From Candidatus Hermodarchaeota archaeon (GTDB lineage: Archaea > Asgardarchaeota > Thorarchaeia > Thorarchaeales > Thorarchaeaceae): 44,544 bases of DNA. The first letter of the stretch is position 1, and each line of letters opens with the position of its first letter. Positions 3,045-42,148 of this stretch are shown here, one piece after another. The DNA lies in NCBI GenBank assembly GCA_048885865.1, contig JBHLLF010000023.1:1-44544 (forward strand). The letters are read 5' to 3'. The notes beneath the pieces are model-generated. The model did no database searches, was not told the origin of the DNA, and saw only the letters and a program-made list of their open reading frames with translations. The position numbers and the translations under genes are program-made.

Positions 3045-5273
3045 TTAAAATCTGTTTGGTGAGGACATGTCTTTAGAATCAAATACAGCTCTAATAGAGT
3101 CCAAGGCTTCTCGTACCTCTACTCTTCTCTTTCCGTCCATCACATTTGGATAGTGTTTTGAGTAGTGTTCCAAGCATTTGCCAAGCGCCATCACATATGT
3201 GTCGAGCTCAGTTGGCTTCTCTCCGTTCTCAATAAGATGTTCGACCGTCTTCTTGGAGGACCTACTAATCCGTTTCTTGATTTCATTCCACGGCTTTGTT
3301 GGAGCAGTTTTCGAGCGTTTTCTACATACAATAACCATGTCATAGACTATATTTTCCATATCATGAAGATGCGTCGATGCCCTCATCTCACTCCTGACTG
3401 GATAGATTGATGTTACATAGAAGCCCGAGTCTAATATAGCCTGCAAAACAGCAGCCCAGGCTTCTTCCTTCTTGTGATGGAAAGTGAAAACTAGAACTCC
3501 ATCTCTCTTCAAGATTCGATTTGATTCAGAGAACACCTTCGTGAGACCGGCGAGGAACTCCATTTCACCCTTTTCTTGCACTCTATTCTCAATGATTTCG
3601 TTTTTCCAAGGTGCAAATTCATTGTCGAATTGAGCATATCTATTCTGGAGAGCAATTCTGAGCCAAACATAGAAGAAGTTCGAGAGCTCGGAGTACATGA
3701 CATTGCCATAGTAGGGTGGATCTGTCACCACAGCATCCGCAATTTGACTTGGCACCTCGATTGATTCAGATGAACCACAAAGGAGGTGCACCTTCTTCTT
3801 CTCATCTAGGTCGCTATAGCTTTCTGCAATCTCGGTAGCTATTGGAAGACCTGATTGGACTTTCACCATAGAGCCGCTCTTGATTATCCGCTCGAATGGC
3901 TGCCTACAATACTCCTTCCCTTCAATCACAAGGTTGACAAAAGCTGTGAACGCGCCCCTCCCTCTTGGAGTGTCATAGCAATTGGCCTCAACTGGCGCCA
4001 TTGAAGGGGAATAGGAGTGTGTACGGAATATATCCGTGATGAATCCACGTGTAGCATTATACTTTGCAAACATGTTGTTGTACTTCAAAGAGTTCGAAAA
4101 TGCCAGAACTAGGAACTCCTTGAGATCCCAGTCTTCAAGATTCAGAATCCACTTGTAGATCTTTCCAAGATTCAACAATTGTCTCTCATTGAACAGGTCT
4201 CCGAACTTTCTGTAGCCATGGTTTAGTGCTCGTCTGGTTTCAACACCTACTGGGATGAGAGAGTCCGGGATTGGGAGTTGGCTCCCGACTTCTGCATATT
4301 CATCCTTGGCTCGCTTCAGAAGTGCCAGATCCGAATCATCTGCTCTCTTATAGCCCCGGCCATTCTTCAAGTTTGGATTTCTACTCACCTCACAGACCTT
4401 ACAGTGGAACTCGATGGCATACATCTCTTCTTCAGGTCGACCGTTAGTCTGAATCCAGTCAACAATGGTCCCAGGACGACAGTGGTTACCGCAGTAGTAC
4501 TTTCTGCCATCTGTGAAGAATGTTGATTTCGGATTAAACCTCCTTTTGCATTCTGGACATATAACACTTTGAGCGGCAAAATTCGTATCAAAAACCGCGT
4601 AACATTGGGGACAAATTACCACATTTCCATCATTTTTGAGGGATTTTGCTAGGATATAGTCCTTCATGAGAGGAATCTCTTTTGCGCAATCGGAACAGGT
4701 GACCGTTTTATGATAGAAATAGTAGATTCCCTCAGCTTCGGTCCCACATTCAGGGCATTTTGTGCGATAATATTGTCTCAGTTCCGTTCCCATCTCATTC
4801 TCCAGGTTGAATACAGTACGTCGGAGTTTCTCAGGATCAATGTCCTCGATTTCTTTCTTTACAATGAACCATGATACAGGATTGAGGTCTCCAGCTATGA
4901 CCTTGCAGCCAAATCTCAGTGCCTCCACAACAGTTGTTCCACCCCCCATCATTGGGTCAAGAACAAGCTTGCCTGACAGTTCAACTTCTTTGGAGTATAA
5001 GTCCCAAAGAGAGTCTGAACGACTATCACTCAAAGTGTACAATAGAATTGAACGAAAGATTGACCCAAGTCTACGTGCCCACCATTTATGCATGACATAT
5101 ACAGGTCGATAGTGCCGCCTGCCAAATCCAGTGGATTCCTTCTCCGCTATCCTGTTAATCTCCGATATCGGGAACTTGATTTCTATTGGCCGCTTTGGCA
5201 GGTTGGGTCCTCCTAATATCAGTGGGAAAATTGCTGTACACGGACCCCTTTCAACATTCCGAGAAGTCCACAA
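3045..5273 (-). CDS. DUF1156-type adenine-specific DNA methyltransferase with Zn-ribbon insertions; true start may be near 5201
   Basis: MHKWWARR, motif I DPMMGGGTT, motif IV TDPPYY, several CxxC pairs. Confidence 0.88.
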   Translation of the reverse strand: MWTSRNVERGPCTAIFPLILGGPNLPKRPIEIKFPISEINRIAEKESTGFGRRHYRPVYVMHKWWARRLGSIFRSILLYTLSDSRSDSLWDLYSKEVELSGKLVLDPMMGGGTTVVEALRFGCKVIAGDLNPVSWFIVKKEIEDIDPEKLRRTVFNLENEMGTELRQYYRTKCPECGTEAEGIYYFYHKTVTCSDCAKEIPLMKDYILAKSLKNDGNVVICPQCYAVFDTNFAAQSVICPECKRRFNPKSTFFTDGRKYYCGNHCRPGTIVDWIQTNGRPEEEMYAIEFHCKVCEVSRNPNLKNGRGYKRADDSDLALLKRAKDEYAEVGSQLPIPDSLIPVGVETRRALNHGYRKFGDLFNERQLLNLGKIYKWILNLEDWDLKEFLVLAFSNSLKYNNMFAKYNATRGFITDIFRTHSYSPSMAPVEANCYDTPRGRGAFTAFVNLVIEGKEYCRQPFERIIKSGSMVKVQSGLPIATEIAESYSDLDEKKKVHLLCGSSESIEVPSQIADAVVTDPPYYGNVMYSELSNFFYVWLRIALQNRYAQFDNEFAPWKNEIIENRVQEKGEMEFLAGLTKVFSESNRILKRDGVLVFTFHHKKEEAWAAVLQAILDSGFYVTSIYPVRSEMRASTHLHDMENIVYDMVIVCRKRSKTAPTKPWNEIKKRISRSSKKTVEHLIENGEKPTELDTYVMALGKCLEHYSKHYPNVMDGKRRVEVREALDSIRAVFDSKDMSSPNRF

Positions 5274-5331: not shown

Positions 5332-5408
5332 CGGGACGTAGCTCAATCTGGCAGAGCAATGGACTGTAGATCCATCGGTTGCCGGTTCAAATCCGGCCGT
5401 CCCGACCA
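5332..5408 (+). tRNA. tRNA-Tyr(GTA), CCA encoded, no intron
   Basis: Acceptor cgggacg/cgtcccg (archaeal C1:G72), A73, anticodon arm atgga-ctgtaga-tccat. Confidence 0.97.
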
Positions 5409-5621: not shown

Positions 5622-6815
5622 ATGAACGTCATGCCATGGAGAGAATCCGAAAATCAAACCCTAGACCCTACGAGGGTTGCTGTCCTAGGCGCAGGACATG
5701 CTGGCAGAGGATTTGCCAGTTATCTCTCATTGCATGGATTAGATGTTTCTCTTTACAACCGTACAAAGGATCATGTTAAGGGGATCCTAAAGGCAAATGG
5801 AATCCATATGCAAGGTATTGTCGAAGCCTTTGCACCAATTCAGTTAGTCACTGATAACATGGCCTATGCGATTGATGGCAGAAAGCTTCTCATTGTCACT
5901 GTTCCAGCCCAGGCACATACATTCTTTGCTGAAACCATGGGTCCACACCTAGAGGAAGGTCAAACAGTGCTTCTAATGCCAGGTCGAACTGGTGGCGCAC
6001 TTGAGTTTACAAAAGTCTTGAGTGATAATTCGTACGGGGATGGCATTCTGTTGGGAGAAGCTCAGACGTTCAGTCTTGTGTCCAGAACCACTGGCCCGGA
6101 TTCTGTGCTAGTTTCTAAAGTCAAGAATTATGTTGAAGTAGGCGCATTTCCAGCGAGTCACAATCGTCAGCTTATGAATGCTCTCAATCAGCTTCCACTC
6201 ACATTTCAGATGGTTGACGATGTCATGAACACCAGCCTCAACAATATAGGCGCAATGCTGCACCCGACTCCTACCATTCTCTGTGCTGGTCTCCTAGAGT
6301 CAAAGAAAGGCGGATACAACCATTATCATGATGCAATCTCAAAGACTGTAGGAAAACTGGTGGAACGAATGGATGCCGAAAGAATCAAGGTGTCACAACA
6401 GTTTGCGTCCCAACCCATGTCCCTTCTGGAATGGCTAAGAAACACTTACGATGCTGAAGGGAGTACTTTGTGTGAATGTATTCGGAGCATTGACACCTAT
6501 GACGGAATTGGCAGTCCATCATCCTTAGACCACCGTTATGTAATGGAGGATGTGCCTACAGGTCTTGTACCTATTTCCCACTTCGGAAAACTAGCTGGAC
6601 TTGAAACTCCTGCTATAGACGCAGTAATCAACATGGCATGCCAGCTCTATGAGATTGATTTCTGGGAGAGTGGACGAAATCTTGAAACTCTGGGTTTAGA
6701 AGGACTGAGCCCTACTGAGGTTCGAGAATATGTCAGGACCGGGACCATACCTGTTTCATATCCTAGCTTTCCTGACCATTGGGACCTTCACGGGTTGGAG
6801 GTGGACGAGACATGA
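5622..6815 (+). CDS. NAD(P)-dependent opine (octopine/nopaline) dehydrogenase family protein
   Basis: VAVLGAGHAG Rossmann motif, PGRTGG, SLNNIGAMLHP, MDAERI, HRYVMEDVPTGLVP. Confidence 0.9.
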   Translation: MNVMPWRESENQTLDPTRVAVLGAGHAGRGFASYLSLHGLDVSLYNRTKDHVKGILKANGIHMQGIVEAFAPIQLVTDNMAYAIDGRKLLIVTVPAQAHTFFAETMGPHLEEGQTVLLMPGRTGGALEFTKVLSDNSYGDGILLGEAQTFSLVSRTTGPDSVLVSKVKNYVEVGAFPASHNRQLMNALNQLPLTFQMVDDVMNTSLNNIGAMLHPTPTILCAGLLESKKGGYNHYHDAISKTVGKLVERMDAERIKVSQQFASQPMSLLEWLRNTYDAEGSTLCECIRSIDTYDGIGSPSSLDHRYVMEDVPTGLVPISHFGKLAGLETPAIDAVINMACQLYEIDFWESGRNLETLGLEGLSPTEVREYVRTGTIPVSYPSFPDHWDLHGLEVDET

Positions 6816-8485
6816 GAATCTTGGGCGCTGCCATTGGAAGCTGTGTCCATGTAGCAGGTGTTCTTAGATTCTTATCATTTGCAGAAAAAGAAGGACATGA
6901 AACTATCTTCTTAGGACCCACAATCCAAATTGAGGATCTAATAGACCAGACCAAGAGATACGACCCTGATGTTATTGGGGTGAGCTATCGACTCACCGCA
7001 GATAGCGCTGTGGGCCTTCTTGAGAACTTGAAAAAGGCTGTAATAGAAAGTGGTCTGGAAAGGAAGAGATGGATTCTAGGTTGCACAGCACCTGTCAAGT
7101 CCATTGCAGAACGAACTGGACTGTTTGAAGCAATATTCACTGGCTTTTCTACTGATGAAGATTCACTAGCCTTTCTCAGAGGCCACTCGCACATGGAAAC
7201 AGACGAGAAGCACCCTCAAGACTTGATGACACGAATCGCCATGAAGAGCCCAATACCCCTTATCCGGCACCATTTCGGTCTACCATCACTAGAAGAAACA
7301 GTTGATGGGGTGGCAAGGATAGCAGAGGCTTCAGTTCTGGATGTGATCTCAATTGGACCAGATCAGAATGCCCAAGAGTCCTTCTTCCGTCCAGATGAGA
7401 TGAAGGGAATCCTAGAAGGTGATGGAGGTGTCCCACTTAGGGAAGTCGAAGACCTACAGAAACTCTTCCAGGCTTCTCGAAAAGGCAATTTCCCGCTCTT
7501 GAGATGCTACAGTGGCACTCGTGATCTGCTATCCTGGGCAAAGATGCTGAAGGACACCATAAGCAATGCTTGGTGTGCCACACCTCTGATGTGGTATAGC
7601 GAACTAGATGGAAGAAGCAAAAGACACCTTGAACAAGCAATTCGAGAGAACCAAGGGAATCATAGATGGCACGCAAAACATGATATCCCTCTCGAAATCA
7701 ACGAGTCCCACCACTGGAGCTTGAGAAATGCCCATGATACAATTGCAGTTGCGATGGCATTTCTGTCAGCCTATAATGCTAAATCAGTCGGCATTAGACA
7801 CTATGTTTCACAGTACATGTTAAACACTCCGCTTGGAACTTCTCCGAAGATGGACCTTGCCAAGATGCTTGCGAAGATAGAGCTGATTGAGTCATTACAT
7901 GATCACAGTTTTCTTTCACTAAGGCAAGTCAGACCAGGCCTCTTTTCATATCCCCCAGACCTAGACTCAGGCAAGGGCCAACTTGCATCTTCAATCTATA
8001 CAGGAATGATGTTGAAACCCCATATAGTGCATGTAGTCGGATTCTGTGAGGCAGACCACGTTGCGACTGCAGAAGAGATCGTTGAGAGCTGCAAGATTGC
8101 ACGACGGGTCATTCATGACTGTCTTCTTGGGACCATGAGTCCATTAGATGACAAAGAAGTCCTAAGAAGAAAGAACGAACTCGTAGAGGAAGCCAAAGTG
8201 CTTATCGCCGCTATCAATTCACTTGGTGATACATCCTCATCCCACCCTCTAGTTGAACCCTTAACATACGTGCGGGCAGTCGAGATAGGTGTATTGGATG
8301 CCCCACACCTGAGAAACAATCCCATTGCAAAGGGACAGCTCAGAACCAAAATGATTCATGGTGCATGTTTTGCCATAGACTCTAATTCAGGGGTTCCAAT
8401 TGATGAGAATACTAGACTAAGACAACTTGGCCTTGAAATAGAACTTAAGCGTGCATTAAGCCTACCTTATTTCAGCAAATTATGA
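6812..8485 (+). CDS. Cobalamin-binding domain protein with large uncharacterised C-terminal catalytic domain (start refined to 6812)
   Basis: GSCVHVAGV (DxHxxG-like), FLGP, VIGVSYRL B12-binding motifs; ATGA overlap with upstream stop; ggaggtgg SD. Confidence 0.85.
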   Translation: MRILGAAIGSCVHVAGVLRFLSFAEKEGHETIFLGPTIQIEDLIDQTKRYDPDVIGVSYRLTADSAVGLLENLKKAVIESGLERKRWILGCTAPVKSIAERTGLFEAIFTGFSTDEDSLAFLRGHSHMETDEKHPQDLMTRIAMKSPIPLIRHHFGLPSLEETVDGVARIAEASVLDVISIGPDQNAQESFFRPDEMKGILEGDGGVPLREVEDLQKLFQASRKGNFPLLRCYSGTRDLLSWAKMLKDTISNAWCATPLMWYSELDGRSKRHLEQAIRENQGNHRWHAKHDIPLEINESHHWSLRNAHDTIAVAMAFLSAYNAKSVGIRHYVSQYMLNTPLGTSPKMDLAKMLAKIELIESLHDHSFLSLRQVRPGLFSYPPDLDSGKGQLASSIYTGMMLKPHIVHVVGFCEADHVATAEEIVESCKIARRVIHDCLLGTMSPLDDKEVLRRKNELVEEAKVLIAAINSLGDTSSSHPLVEPLTYVRAVEIGVLDAPHLRNNPIAKGQLRTKMIHGACFAIDSNSGVPIDENTRLRQLGLEIELKRALSLPYFSKL

Positions 8486-8523: not shown

Positions 8524-8572
8524 TGGACTGTAGATCCATCGGTTGCCGGTTTAAATCCGGCTGGCCCGACCA
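8524..8572 (+). repeat. tRNA-Tyr 3' half direct repeat (att-like)
   Basis: 46/49 identical to 5360-5408, from the anticodon stem through CCA. Confidence 0.93.
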
Positions 8573-8649
8573 TCTCTCGTTTCTAAATCTCTTTTACAAA
8601 CCTCATTTGTTATAAGGAGGTATACTATCGTTAATATCGAGAGAGCAGA

Positions 8650-10892: not shown

Positions 10893-11996
10893 TCACTCTA
10901 CCAACTCATCCAACCAAGCTGAGGTCTTGTCGACTTTTCGGGTGAAGATTCTACCCTGATCACTGGAATTCTTTGCCTGATGGTACTTGAAGAGAAACTT
11001 CCCGTCAAGTATTCCCAGAATCTCAATTTTGCCAGTGTGGTGGGACATTATGTAGCGGAACCGTTTGCTATGACCATTGAGAAGTCCCTTTGCTTCTTCA
11101 ACAATCCGATACCCATCGTAGAGGGGGACTTGGAAGGTCTTCTTCACTCTAGCAACAGGACGGCACTGAAACACATAGTATGGGTTCACCCCAATACCAA
11201 CAAGCCCGTTCTGAAGAGCAGCCAATACGACTGGGTCGTCGTTCACTCCCTTCAGGAGGACCGTCTGGTTATTTACAATCACACCAGCTGACATCAACCT
11301 GTCAATTGCAGCTATAGATTCTTCAGTTATTTCCCTTGGATGGTTGAACTGTGTTACTAGGAATAATCTTCTAAATGCCTTCGAGTGGTTTCTCAGGACT
11401 TCTAATAGTTCATCATCATGAAGAATACGCATAGGATACGTTACGGGGATGCGCGAACCAAACCTAATGAAGTCTAAATGAGGGACGTTTGATAGCACCT
11501 CAAGTAGATTGCCTATCCGGGAAGTGCTTAGAGTGAAAGGGTCCCCGCCAGTGATGAGTACATTATTAATCTCTTCATGATTCCTGATGTACTCCGTAGC
11601 TGCATCCACATCTCGTAGAATCTCTTGACTTGGCAGTCCGACAAGTCTCTTTCTAAAGCAATGTCGACAGTACATTGCACACTCAGCGGTGGCAAGAATC
11701 AAAGCAGTCTGTTTGTATTTATGTTGCAAGCCAGGTAGAATCGTGTTGGAAAGTTCTCCGCTAGTGTCGTATGAACCTTCCACAATTGATTCGGTACTAC
11801 TCGGAAGAGCCATTCTCCTTATTGGATCCTCTGGGTCTTGTTCATCTATTAGGGAGAGATAATACTCAGGAACACGAATTGGATGCATCTCACTCAAACG
11901 ATTGAGAATTCTTTCCTCTGGCTCAGTAAGGTCTAGGATTTCTCCAATCTCATCGACTGAGGTGATTAACTCATCTCCGTCTAGAGCATGACTCAA
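10893..11996 (-). CDS. KamA-family radical SAM protein (lysine 2,3-aminomutase-like)
   Basis: GLQHKY, CAMYCRHCFRKR, ITGGDP, QFNHPRE, NQTVLLKGVND; TTG start overlaps upstream TGA. Confidence 0.9.
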   Translation of the reverse strand: MSHALDGDELITSVDEIGEILDLTEPEERILNRLSEMHPIRVPEYYLSLIDEQDPEDPIRRMALPSSTESIVEGSYDTSGELSNTILPGLQHKYKQTALILATAECAMYCRHCFRKRLVGLPSQEILRDVDAATEYIRNHEEINNVLITGGDPFTLSTSRIGNLLEVLSNVPHLDFIRFGSRIPVTYPMRILHDDELLEVLRNHSKAFRRLFLVTQFNHPREITEESIAAIDRLMSAGVIVNNQTVLLKGVNDDPVVLAALQNGLVGIGVNPYYVFQCRPVARVKKTFQVPLYDGYRIVEEAKGLLNGHSKRFRYIMSHHTGKIEILGILDGKFLFKYHQAKNSSDQGRIFTRKVDKTSAWLDELVE

Positions 11997-12202
11997 GAAC
12001 CCACGCCCTGACTATTCTCTTTGGCTGGTTCTGTGGACATCCTTGAGATAATTGCCATTCTCCGTTCGATATCATACCATTCACTGATTGGGATCCTGGC
12101 TGCCAACCTTTTCCTATCGTCCACAACTGGCGTATCCTCTTTGTCTTGTTTATTCTCTCTCATTTCCTTTTTCATCTCTTTTGCAGGAATAATCGACATC
12201 AC
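11993..12202 (-). CDS. Small upstream peptide, copy C (PISEWYDIERRMAIISRMS)
   Basis: Paralog at 16344-16499; stop overlaps the kamA-like start (TTGA). Confidence 0.75.
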   Translation of the reverse strand: MMSIIPAKEMKKEMRENKQDKEDTPVVDDRKRLAARIPISEWYDIERRMAIISRMSTEPAKENSQGVGS

Positions 12203-12360
12203 TTGATTAATCAGAAGAGGTTCGTTCCATCGATTCTACAAGTTCCATGCGTTTCCATATTATAGGAAATTCACACTAGGCGGTTTTGCCTAACCTGCCA
12301 AAGGTTATTCCTACTTTTCTTCAGCTATTACACGAAGAGCTACGCGACTGCTTAAAACTC
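12203..12360 (-). promoter_or_regulatory. Promoter plus long 5' leader, copy C (more divergent)
   Basis: Minus strand ttttaagca TATA, aagtag-gaataa block, aagtga before start; hairpins taggc/gccta and ttcc/ggaa. Confidence 0.45.
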
Positions 12361-12565: not shown

Positions 12566-13111
12566 GTGATGCAAATGAATTCTGAAACAGAATCTTCGGA
12601 AGCAAAATCTGAAACAAGTAATGAAGTAAAAATCGCTGAACTGGAAACTAGAATGAGCAATATTGACACTAGTTTCAAGGTACTAGAAAAGGGCGATGTA
12701 CGTGAAGTAACATCCAGACGAGATGGGAGCATCAATCGAGTAGCCAGTGCAATTGTAGGGGACGAAACCGGAATTGTGACTCTTCCATTATGGAATGACA
12801 TGATAGAAGCAATCGAAGCTGGCAAAACCTATGTCTTGAAGAATGCACATACTGGTCTCTTTCGAGGAAATCTCAGACTGAAAATTAGTCGAGATAGTGA
12901 AATCAGCGAGAGAGAGGAAGAGATCACTGAAGTCAAAATGGACAATGACCTGTCCGAGGTTGATCATGGCAGACCACGGCGTCACTACTATCAAGGATCT
13001 TCCGGTCGATCTTATGGGTCCGACCGTGGTAGATATGGTGGTGGAGGCTATAGAGGCTATTCATCCCGAAACAGAAGGGACTATCGTCGCCGAAGGAGAC
13101 CAAGATACTAG
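12566..13111 (+). CDS. ssb: Single OB-fold ssDNA-binding protein (crenarchaeal SSB-like) with R/G/Y/S-rich tail
   Basis: AIVGDETGxVxLxLW and KNAxTxxFRGxLxL motifs; low-complexity basic C-terminus. Confidence 0.85.
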   Translation: MMQMNSETESSEAKSETSNEVKIAELETRMSNIDTSFKVLEKGDVREVTSRRDGSINRVASAIVGDETGIVTLPLWNDMIEAIEAGKTYVLKNAHTGLFRGNLRLKISRDSEISEREEEITEVKMDNDLSEVDHGRPRRHYYQGSSGRSYGSDRGRYGGGGYRGYSSRNRRDYRRRRRPRY

Positions 13112-13206: not shown

Positions 13207-13701
13207 TTGACAGGACCAACTAGAGAGATAGCAGTGGCAATTATAGGTGAGCCACAAGTGGGCAAAACGCAGCTTATCCAACTATTGAACGATGATGCTG
13301 AGAGTAGTGGTATAACAACCAAACTGAAATCCAAGGACTTCGTCTTTACATTTTGGGAGCTTCAGACATCAAGCTCTGCACCTGAAAAACTGGAGATATT
13401 TGCACGGTCCTTCATTCAGAATAGCAGACCATTTCATCGTTATCTATTAATCGTCACTGATAGCACAAGCGAGGACGTGAACCGAATCAAATACTCCTTG
13501 AGGTTTCTTCGAGAGTCATTTCCAGACACGCGATTTTCTATTGTGGCAAATAAGCAGGATTTGGATGGGTCTCTAAATAAATCCCGCATAGAAACGATGA
13601 CAAATCTGCCCACTCTAGAGATTTCAGCAATGAATCCTGAGAATCGCATCAGACTCGTAAATTTCCTTTCATATCTGATCGAATCAGATACAGGACTCTA
13701 G
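13207..13701 (+). CDS. Small Ras-like GTPase-fold protein with degenerate G3
   Basis: G1 GEPQVGKT, G4 NKQD, G5 EISA; FWELQT in place of WDxxG. Confidence 0.75.
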   Translation: MTGPTREIAVAIIGEPQVGKTQLIQLLNDDAESSGITTKLKSKDFVFTFWELQTSSSAPEKLEIFARSFIQNSRPFHRYLLIVTDSTSEDVNRIKYSLRFLRESFPDTRFSIVANKQDLDGSLNKSRIETMTNLPTLEISAMNPENRIRLVNFLSYLIESDTGL

Positions 13702-15830: not shown

Positions 15831-16343
15831 CTAACGACCGCTCGTCAACTGAAAGCTGTCAATCAGTTTCTTGAAGACGGGATTCTCTGAAATTCTGACC
15901 TGCTTTCCGCTTCCATTGGACCCTATATACAAGCCAAACATCACAAGCAGCCCATAGGGGCCCCCATCAGGAGATGGGATTATGATGGCTAGCCACTTCT
16001 TTCGTGATAACCCATGTCCAGCCACAAACTCACGCGCTCTGCGATCTATCTCTCCGATTCCAATTGTGAGAGTCTTTCCCATCTTCACCGAAGGTCCAAT
16101 TTCTATGCCGAATTCACGAATAAGATTCATCAGTGTATTATGATTGTGCGTTCCACTTCTATATGACCTAACAACAAACTCTAACGACCCTCTTGGTGGT
16201 CTCAATAATCTGAGATAGCAGTTGGACTCAGGAAACTTCGTAACTGTCATGGCAGTTTCTGAATAATCCACTGAGAATCCAATTGGCGGCAGCTTCTGAT
16301 TCCAAGCTTCCGAAGGTGTAGAATGAACCATATTGATGTTCAT
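15831..16343 (-). CDS. Hypothetical protein (170 aa)
   Basis: ATG directly follows the TAG of the upstream peptide; ends 12 nt before tfb. Confidence 0.7.
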   Translation of the reverse strand: MNINMVHSTPSEAWNQKLPPIGFSVDYSETAMTVTKFPESNCYLRLLRPPRGSLEFVVRSYRSGTHNHNTLMNLIREFGIEIGPSVKMGKTLTIGIGEIDRRAREFVAGHGLSRKKWLAIIIPSPDGGPYGLLVMFGLYIGSNGSGKQVRISENPVFKKLIDSFQLTSGR

Positions 16344-16499
16344 CTACAAATTCTCCTCTTCGTCGCTTTCATTTCGAGGAGAGTCTGTGGTTTCGAAGTA
16401 GGGTCTGTCTGCAGACATTCTTGCCACTATGGCCATTCTTCTTTCAATATCAAACCATTCTGTAATTGGTAATCCGGCGTTTAGTCCTTCTTCTGTCAT
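16344..16499 (-). CDS. Small upstream peptide, copy A (51 aa; not in ORF track)
   Basis: Hand translation MTEEGLNAGLPITEWFDIERRMAIVARMSADRPYFETTDSPRNESDEEENL; 17/24 identical core with 11993-12202. Confidence 0.8.
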   Translation of the reverse strand: MTEEGLNAGLPITEWFDIERRMAIVARMSADRPYFETTDSPRNESDEEENL

Positions 16500-16661
16500 T
16501 ATTGTTCACTTCAATTACGGCTCAGAGCCAAAGTAGGACATTTCGGGATTCATAGAATGAATGCAAAATAACCGCGCAATTGGTTACTACAAGCATACAA
16601 CCGAACTTATTCTCTACTTATTCTCTCAATCATCACTAGCTATCAAGCCGTGCTTATAAAA
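16500..16661 (-). promoter_or_regulatory. Promoter plus structured 5' leader, copy A
   Basis: ttttataagcac TATA; blocks taagtagagaata, ttcggttgtat, gaatcccgaaatgtcct shared with 18384-18553. Confidence 0.7.
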
Positions 16662-16776: not shown

Positions 16777-16803
16777 CCGGTTCAAATCCGGCCGTCCCGA
16801 CCA
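16777..16803 (+). repeat. tRNA-Tyr 3' end direct repeat (att-like)
   Basis: ccggttcaaatccggccgtcccgacca, 27/27 identical to 5382-5408. Confidence 0.92.
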
Positions 16804-41447: not shown

Positions 41448-41792
41448 TTATCTGTTGAGCAAGGCAAATCCAGTTCCCTTTACTACTGAAACACCATCGA
41501 ACATACCTATTGGGCTCTTTCTTGTGTTTTTTCTCCTCTCAGGAGGCAATGACATCTTCACTCGTGCCCCGTATATCCTTGCATAAATCACGTCAATAAG
41601 GTAGACCTCGGCAAAGATGACAACGATTGATAGTCCTGGATAATACAATATAGGAATTATCAGAACTCCCATAGTGATCAATCCAATAAAAGCTTCAAAG
41701 TACCTGCGCGACGCATTGAATGCAGCTATTGATAATGATGCTCGAGTCTGAGTCACTGGCTTCGGTTTAATAAGATTGAATTTCGACATCAT
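41448..41792 (-). CDS. Small membrane protein, tandem paralog 2
   Basis: ASRRYFEAF...YARIYGARVKMSLP core shared with the neighbour. Confidence 0.8.
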   Translation of the reverse strand: MMSKFNLIKPKPVTQTRASLSIAAFNASRRYFEAFIGLITMGVLIIPILYYPGLSIVVIFAEVYLIDVIYARIYGARVKMSLPPERRKNTRKSPIGMFDGVSVVKGTGFALLNR

Positions 41793-41800
41793 AAATCACC

Positions 41801-42148
41801 TCACCTTGTGAGTAGTCCTTGTGGTCTAATCTTGGAAACATATCTGCAATCATATACGGTTCTTATCCTTGTACCAGTCCTTCCTCCAAGTGGAAGTGAC
41901 ATCTTCACTCGTGCCCCGTATATCCTTGCATATAATGCCTCGACAAGATAGACTTCAGCAAAGATCACAATGAAGAGTAATCCAGGATAATAGAACACAG
42001 GAATCATCAGGACTCCCATTGTGATCAATCCCATAAAGGCCTCAAAGTACCTGCGCGACGCACCAAGCGCAGTCATAGGCAATGATGTCGACGCAATAGG
42101 CACTCGCATTGGCCCGGTCACTTCGAATTTTGATACCATAAATATCAC
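41801..42148 (-). CDS. Small membrane protein, tandem paralog 1
   Basis: Same core as 41448-41792. Confidence 0.8.
   Translation of the reverse strand: MIFMVSKFEVTGPMRVPIASTSLPMTALGASRRYFEAFMGLITMGVLMIPVFYYPGLLFIVIFAEVYLVEALYARIYGARVKMSLPLGGRTGTRIRTVYDCRYVSKIRPQGLLTR

Follow-up and report, generated by a model that had tools for sequence, protein, structure and literature searches.

The window analysed here, a 44,544-nucleotide stretch of DNA from a Thorarchaeote whose genome is 87% complete, contains a gene for a 51-residue microprotein that lies behind a structured leader RNA. Codon-level comparisons show that this is a real coding gene that is selected independently of its neighbours. Its product is, by a slight balance of probability, a Thorarchaeota-specific small regulatory protein that acts in trans and whose helix folds upon binding to its target. 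The peptide and leader constitute a real, undescribed, testable and lineage-restricted system, and together they point to an unstudied control module.

The features of the window that are discussed below are listed here by position.

10893-11996, minus strand: KamA-family radical SAM enzyme, scoring above the TIGR00238 cut-off
11993-12163, minus strand: paralogous microprotein (copy C), probably 56 residues; the longest open reading frame (ORF) runs to 12202
12164-12325, minus strand: leader C, with a purine arm on its 5' side, two or three hairpins and, on its 3' side, a hairpin that carries the complementary motif in its loop
14868-15818, minus strand: extra TFB paralog in the predicted operon of copy A
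15831-16343, minus strand: 170-residue protein with a PsbP/Mog1/DcrB(Eag) fold; two relatives have it as a fusion with the peptide, and in one it is encoded upstream of the peptide
16344-16499, minus strand: 51-residue microprotein (copy A), with a predicted conserved helix at residues 12-29; its TAG stop codon abuts the next ATG
16498-16632, minus strand: leader A, whose 5' arm AAGUAG (16619-16614) pairs with CCUACUU (16537-16531)
16653-16660, minus strand: TATA-like box, about 160 nucleotides before the start codon in orthologs, with a transcription start predicted near 16630
16777-16803, plus strand: exact 27-nucleotide copy of the tRNA-Tyr 3' end, which forms an att-like scar on the upstream side of the promoter of unit A
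17394-18344, minus strand: second extra TFB paralog, behind leader B
18351-18383, minus strand: decayed remnant (10 codons) of a peptide gene, between leader B and the second tfb gene
18382-18526, minus strand: leader B, a 70% identical copy of leader A

A sequence-only reading of this DNA had proposed that the ORFs at 16344-16499 and 11993-12202 are paralogs. Both are present on the minus strand, and their cores match at 17 of 24 positions as claimed; BLASTP aligns copies A and C with 17 of 26 residues identical (E 8e-13). The list of seven identical residues that use different codons is also correct, and an eighth synonymous pair (CTA/TTG) is found at the first leucine. For this pair of genes, pS is 0.70 and pN is 0.15. 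These are the only two intact copies of the peptide gene in the genome. Copy C had been described as a 69-residue protein. That ORF exists, but initiation at GTG 12202 is unlikely, and the gene most likely starts at ATG 12163 to encode 56 residues. Two observations argue for the shorter form: orthologs carry an SD-like GAGGTGA right before this ATG and frequently a stop codon upstream, and positions 12164-12202 belong to the leader RNA, including its SD and 3' hairpin. At its other end, the stop codon of copy C overlaps the TTG codon at which the KamA-like gene starts. The term 'unannotated' is true of the function of these ORFs, but orthologs have already been called hypothetical proteins by gene callers.

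The small-ORF profile search that had been suggested as a check recovers the family. With a profile built from 25 homologs, it is found in 44 of 86 Thorarchaeota genomes and in ten of 16 genera, and the approximately 225 other Asgard genomes give one weak match, by score alone. A search of 1.84 billion representatives returns 36 proteins of 42-74 residues, except for one 226-residue protein that is a fusion to the neighbouring 170-residue ORF. This fusion is the only longer match, which argues against the core being a fragment of a longer known protein; a dedicated search of longer proteins with the peptide alignment is also negative, although this is weak evidence. The peptide has no match in Pfam, NCBIfam or viral contigs, the family profile matches none of the PDB sequences, and the ESM Atlas offers unnamed or unrelated clusters only. 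Likenesses to MIM1, UIM, VIM, BH3 and WH2 motifs and to the KamA N-terminus fail at invariant positions and find no profile support. By these searches, the family consists of Thorarchaeota-restricted, undescribed proteins of roughly 50 residues. Searchable papers contain no description of the peptide or the leader for Thorarchaeota.

Conservation of the peptide rather than the DNA, which the earlier reading had argued from two copies, is borne out by purifying selection across about 50 homologs, with a core pN/pS of 0.1-0.2. The constrained core comprises 21 residues with an invariant tryptophan, an invariant arginine and an R-M-T/S motif; W15, R20, R27 and M28 are invariant in a larger alignment. 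Among 51 cores, entropies at the three codon positions are 0.84, 0.59 and 1.48, the third position being the most variable, and the other two forward frames are closed in 47-48 cores. Within the main groups, core pN/pS is 0.12, 0.17 and 0.23, with tails near 0.5. The tail that follows R-M-T/S ranges from 2 to 39 residues and tolerates frameshifts. In the AlphaFold model, residues 12-29 form a single helix (pLDDT about 90) between flanks of low confidence, and the peptide is accordingly predicted to be one helix within disordered flanks. A tree of the peptides is built on 28 columns and is little resolved.

At most of the 53 loci, the peptide gene comes first in the transcript. What follows it is a KamA-like gene, the 170-residue ORF, a gene for a class I methyltransferase or one that probably encodes a fragment of a peptidase, so that at least four unrelated genes follow the peptide; these have no evident common pathway. 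About 44 of the 53 copies directly precede a co-oriented gene, often with stop-start overlap. Junctions with the next start codon take the forms TAG-ATG, TTGA and ATGA, and this coupling persists despite frameshifts in the tail. In the case of copy A, the TAG is directly followed by the ATG of the 170-residue ORF and then by tfb. The other nine copies have no coupled downstream gene, and most of these face a convergent gene. They are still constrained, as the three groups that contain stand-alone copies have core pN/pS values of 0, 0.09 and 0.19. At one locus in a relative (L200), the peptide is last in its unit, behind a PsbP-like gene and with an SD of its own. In being coding, under 70-100 residues in length and selected independently of its neighbours, the family is like trans-acting small regulators of the IF7 or sP36 kind, which in addition bind a defined target and change its activity.

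The leaders are 135-165 nucleotides long and have variable inner hairpins. Leader A includes an inner helix (UUCGG/CCGAA) and an SD-like sequence at 16512-16506. The distance from the TATA-like box to the start codon is about 160 nucleotides at copy A and 160-195 nucleotides in most homologs, as judged against a crude control of 41 genes of this genome only. At 34 of the 53 loci, representing five genera, a 5' AAGUAG-type arm is accompanied by a complementary CCUACUU-type motif located about 30-55 nucleotides before the start codon. Five other carrier genera are without this leader motif, and several of them still have long leaders. In the KamA-type leaders, exemplified by leader C, the complementary motif resides in the loop of the 3' hairpin.

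Pairing in these leaders is well maintained. Across 25 pairs of the KamA-type leaders, 93.6% of cells pair and eight pairs change on both sides (1/500 shuffles); in slid controls, pairing falls to 28-42%. The tfb-type leaders are similar: 93.5% of cells pair, and changes that affect both partners are confined to the inner helix. Variation in the long-range pair is limited to G-U wobbles or mismatches, and this pair may for this reason be constrained in sequence. Tolerance of G-U pairs and covariation in the hairpins favour, without proving, the view that the leader acts as RNA rather than as operator DNA. Folding z-scores are modest, with a mean of about -1. RNAalifold derives no consensus for the poorly aligned leaders of genus g5, each of which has an individual 3' hairpin.

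An Rfam search of the window region and six loci yields no match at E<=1, and a covariance model finds the type of leaders A and B in 26 genomes of two genera. At about 17 places, this leader precedes a tfb paralog, and the peptide there is missing or has decayed. Because the leader is kept before tfb without the peptide, and because five carrier genera have no leader motif, leader and peptide are each maintained on their own. Two general attributes of riboswitch-like cis-regulatory RNAs are found here: a conserved 5' UTR with compensatory changes, which occur in the inner hairpins, and placement before different genes, namely the peptide and, directly, tfb paralogs.

The earlier reading had listed a ribosome-arrest leader peptide among its proposals. 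Such a portable element would stall the ribosome through its nascent core in response to a metabolite and would control the coupled downstream gene. SAM would be a candidate for the metabolite since KamA and methyltransferases follow the peptide. The first position in most transcripts, the variety of unrelated downstream genes, the coupling that survives tail frameshifts and the tunnel-length conservation of amino acids in the core all suit this mechanism. So does the invariant tryptophan 12-14 residues before R-M-T/S, a spacing similar to that in TnaC or SecM. However, stop-start overlap is common in archaeal operons. Moreover, the peptide is not always upstream, since the nine stand-alone copies and the last-in-unit copy at L200 exist and stand-alone copies are under purifying selection. 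The variable tail allows no fixed distance between stall site and stop codon, and the leader RNA is kept before tfb after loss of the peptide. Control by arrest is consequently unlikely.

The most consistent companion of the peptide is the 170-residue PsbP/Mog1-fold neighbour, which is found downstream of it, upstream of it or fused to it. This ORF has no match in Pfam or NCBIfam. Its fold resembles PsbP, Mog1, SciW and EagT6 (Z up to 11.2, at about 10% identity), with 6xrf and 6xrr among the structure matches. Eag chaperones wrap helices. The PsbP-like gene is present in 23 genomes, of which 20 have an intact peptide and one a degenerate peptide, compared to 44 of 86 overall, although relatives in these counts are not independent. 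Two peptide/170-residue fusion proteins are found, and a second contig has a 169-residue ORF followed by the peptide as in L200, by layout only. About half of the peptide-carrier genomes are without a PsbP-like gene. A complex prediction with two PsbP-like chains and the peptide yields no verdict (score 0.00), and when the natural fusion is modelled with AlphaFold, the helix of the peptide has a pLDDT of about 55 and no confident position; neither model is counted for or against binding.

A trans-acting helix is favoured because of the constrained stand-alone copies, the last-gene copy at L200, the two fusions and the co-occurrence with the PsbP-like gene. We infer that the helix would fold upon binding into the groove of a conserved protein and would inhibit or bridge that protein, with a mode of action like that of cyanobacterial IF7/IF17 or Methanosarcina sP36. 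The PsbP/Mog1-fold protein, where present, would be a dedicated holder or adaptor of the peptide. The final target would be a housekeeping protein common to all carriers, about half of which have no PsbP-like gene. The leader would make translation or the stability of the mRNA depend on a stress signal, and the KamA-like, methyltransferase and tfb genes would be passengers on the promoter-leader that are often coupled to the peptide stop codon. This link of peptide and leader to stress is drawn from the neighbouring genes only. Several observations speak against this account: the carriers without a PsbP-like gene, the placement of about 44 of 53 copies right before a co-oriented gene, as expected of a leader peptide, and, for the leader, the five genera without its motif and the modest folding z-scores.

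All 86 genomes carry TFB genes, typically in four to seven copies, and the window genome has seven. The two extra paralogs in the window are 79% identical in DNA. The linked tfb clade, defined by about 68% identity or more, is found in only two of the ten carrier genera (g1 and g5). Islands in these two genera hold extra TFBs, an SSB, a BON protein, a uL16 paralog, a nitroreductase and a small GTPase, a gene content that, going by neighbours only, would resemble a general stress regulon. The leader might represent a new class of natural riboswitch or thermosensor in archaea and switch on an alternative-TFB stress regulon in Thorarchaeota, with the microprotein, held by its Mog1/Eag-fold partner, inhibiting the transcription or translation machinery in an Asgard counterpart to a sigma/anti-sigma circuit. 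This composite scheme is quite unlikely.

A narrower proposal is that the peptide binds TFB, RNA polymerase or TBP to tune an alternative-TFB stress regulon in the manner of an anti-sigma factor. The peptide and the tfb paralogs have an operon and leader in common in two genera, TFB as a target is present in 86 of 86 genomes, and a short helix between acidic flanks would be suitable for this role. However, the close tfb clade does not share the distribution of the peptide, and repeated deletions have removed the peptide from the tfb operon but left the leader in place. An anti-TFB role is therefore improbable. The 'short helical TFB/RNAP-binding factor' of the sequence-only reading holds up in part: helical binding fits the predicted helix, but TFB and RNA polymerase are not singled out as its partners.

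The surroundings of the peptide differ among genera. The tRNA-Tyr gene of the window is located at 5332-5408, and a second direct copy of its 3' end (50 nucleotides at 94%) occurs at 8524-8573. By their sequence, this and the 27-nucleotide copy are att-like scars of successive insertions, and they mark the region as a rearranging island. Several relatives have similar fragments ahead of the peptide promoter. Adjoining tRNA-Tyr is a 742-residue protein (3045-5273) that partly resembles DUF1156 anti-phage DNA methylases, and a 210-nucleotide direct repeat with 80% identity is found at 41534-41745 and 41882-42091. In a genome of genus g7 (L126:4469-6129), the peptide gene adjoins a phage integrase and a series of small ORFs, which suggests that it is carried there at the edge of an integrated element. 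In genera g4, g6, g12 and g14, the single peptide copy has surroundings that look like those of a core locus, its neighbours being 2-oxoacid dehydrogenase E1, cobalamin adenosyltransferase, methylmalonyl-CoA mutase and bactofilin; the 408-residue bactofilin (L130:2040-3266) is conserved beside the peptide locus in four genera.

Several other genes recur near the peptide. An opine-dehydrogenase-like gene and a 568-residue B12-binding/MutE-like gene are located at 5622-8485; many relatives have them in divergent orientation to the peptide promoter. An Arf/Roc-like small GTPase (13207-13701) lies near the Mog1-fold gene and belongs to an island-restricted clade found in 16 of 86 genomes; in one genome, this GTPase is directly upstream of the peptide. 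The B12-binding neighbour and the small GTPase are rejected as universal partners because their distributions do not track the peptide. The gene at 12566-13111, divergent from leader C, encodes an OB-fold protein that resembles SSB and has a long tail rich in Gly, Arg and Tyr. A uL16 (L10e) gene resides in the peptide/TFB island of several relatives (L038:5361-5900; L147:3073-3690), and the single uL16 match in the window genome is on another contig.

The peptide might instead assemble with itself into a homo-oligomeric helix bundle, or bind nucleic acid, possibly RNA or the ribosome in dormancy. Conserved residues, including the invariant arginines, are on more than one face of the helix, the peptide is independent of any one neighbour, and the uL16 paralog and the SSB with its Gly/Arg-rich tail recur nearby. 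However, leader and peptide separate in both directions, which makes autoregulation through the leader unlikely, and profile searches of the PDB, Pfam and NCBIfam reveal no likeness to known RNA-binding families. This possibility is as improbable as an anti-TFB role.

The KamA-like enzyme falls below the equivalog cut-offs for lysine, glutamate and arginine aminomutases and for EpmB. Its only domains are Radical_SAM and Fer4_12, with no SPASM/twitch or RRE domain. All 24 genomes with the window-type KamA clade have the peptide directly upstream. A KamA-like match (E<=1e-20) is missing from 20 of the 44 carriers; these 20 take in seven genera entirely, and count one genome with a KamA remnant and one that ends at a contig edge. 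KamA therefore follows the peptide and not the reverse. Because of the carriers without KamA, the earlier suggestion that the radical SAM enzyme has the peptide as its substrate or partner does not hold for the family as a whole, and the family has neither the obligate co-occurrence with a maturase nor the SPASM/RRE-containing maturase that characterize radical SAM RiPP precursors. Junctions between the peptide and the 170-residue ORF have TAG in frame at seven loci of the same genus, TAA at two, and are out of frame at five. Amber (pyrrolysine) readthrough is rejected because the in-frame TAG is not conserved, and PylS is not found in the window genome at its 87% completeness. It is thus highly improbable that the peptide is the N-terminal part of a gene that is split or read through, as the in-frame TAG-ATG junctions and two true fusions might suggest, since other junctions break the frame or use TAA and the gene order is reversed in one locus. 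It is just as improbable that the peptide is a substrate of the KamA-like enzyme, as its place directly upstream in the 24 genomes with this clade might suggest, given the carriers without KamA and the missing SPASM and RRE domains.

Among archaea, small proteins have seldom been characterized, and natural cis-regulatory RNAs only very rarely. A 21-residue motif and an RNA of roughly 140 nucleotides are small enough for synthesis and in vitro testing. They would offer a handle on TFB choice in Asgard archaea with many paralogs and on the ligands of the Asgard PsbP/Mog1-fold protein.

TnaC, SecM, SpeFL and eukaryotic conserved-peptide uORFs resemble this family in having a short first ORF, about 20 conserved residues, a key tryptophan and coupling. 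In contrast to these arrest peptides, the Thorarchaeota family also stands alone or last, has no fixed distance from core to stop codon, and precedes genes that do not have a pathway in common. The 170-residue neighbour has the fold of the Eag chaperones (EagT6, SciW), PsbP and Mog1, and Eag proteins cradle helices of the product of a linked gene. However, identity is about 10%, secretion-system genes are not seen in the loci examined and the peptide is not a transmembrane helix.

The fluoride (crcB) riboswitch was, as stated in 2021, the only natural archaeal riboswitch shown experimentally (PMC8241225). Like it, the leader described here is a putative cis-acting structured leader in an archaeon, but it is longer (135-165 nucleotides) and has variable inner hairpins and no Rfam match. 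Methanosarcina sP36, an archaeal protein of about 60 residues, acts on AmtB1/GlnK1 as an inhibitor or adaptor (PMC10714827). The peptide would be comparable as a small archaeal protein proposed to inhibit a larger protein or serve as its adaptor; no homology to sP36 is found, and the peptide differs in its structured leader, its PsbP/Mog1-fold companion and its Thorarchaeota-only range.

The Downstream-peptide RNA motif (RF01704) is a structured 5' UTR that precedes an ORF of 17-100 residues with no known family and a signature of synonymous changes (PMC2864571). IF7, which has 65 residues, inactivates glutamine synthetase by protein contact (PMC11848123). The window system is archaeal, has other motifs with no Rfam or sequence match to these, and places its leader before tfb paralogs as well. 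In layout, an RNA followed by a short ORF, it is like the cyanobacterial Downstream-peptide motif, and in the action proposed here for the peptide it is like IF7 or sP36.
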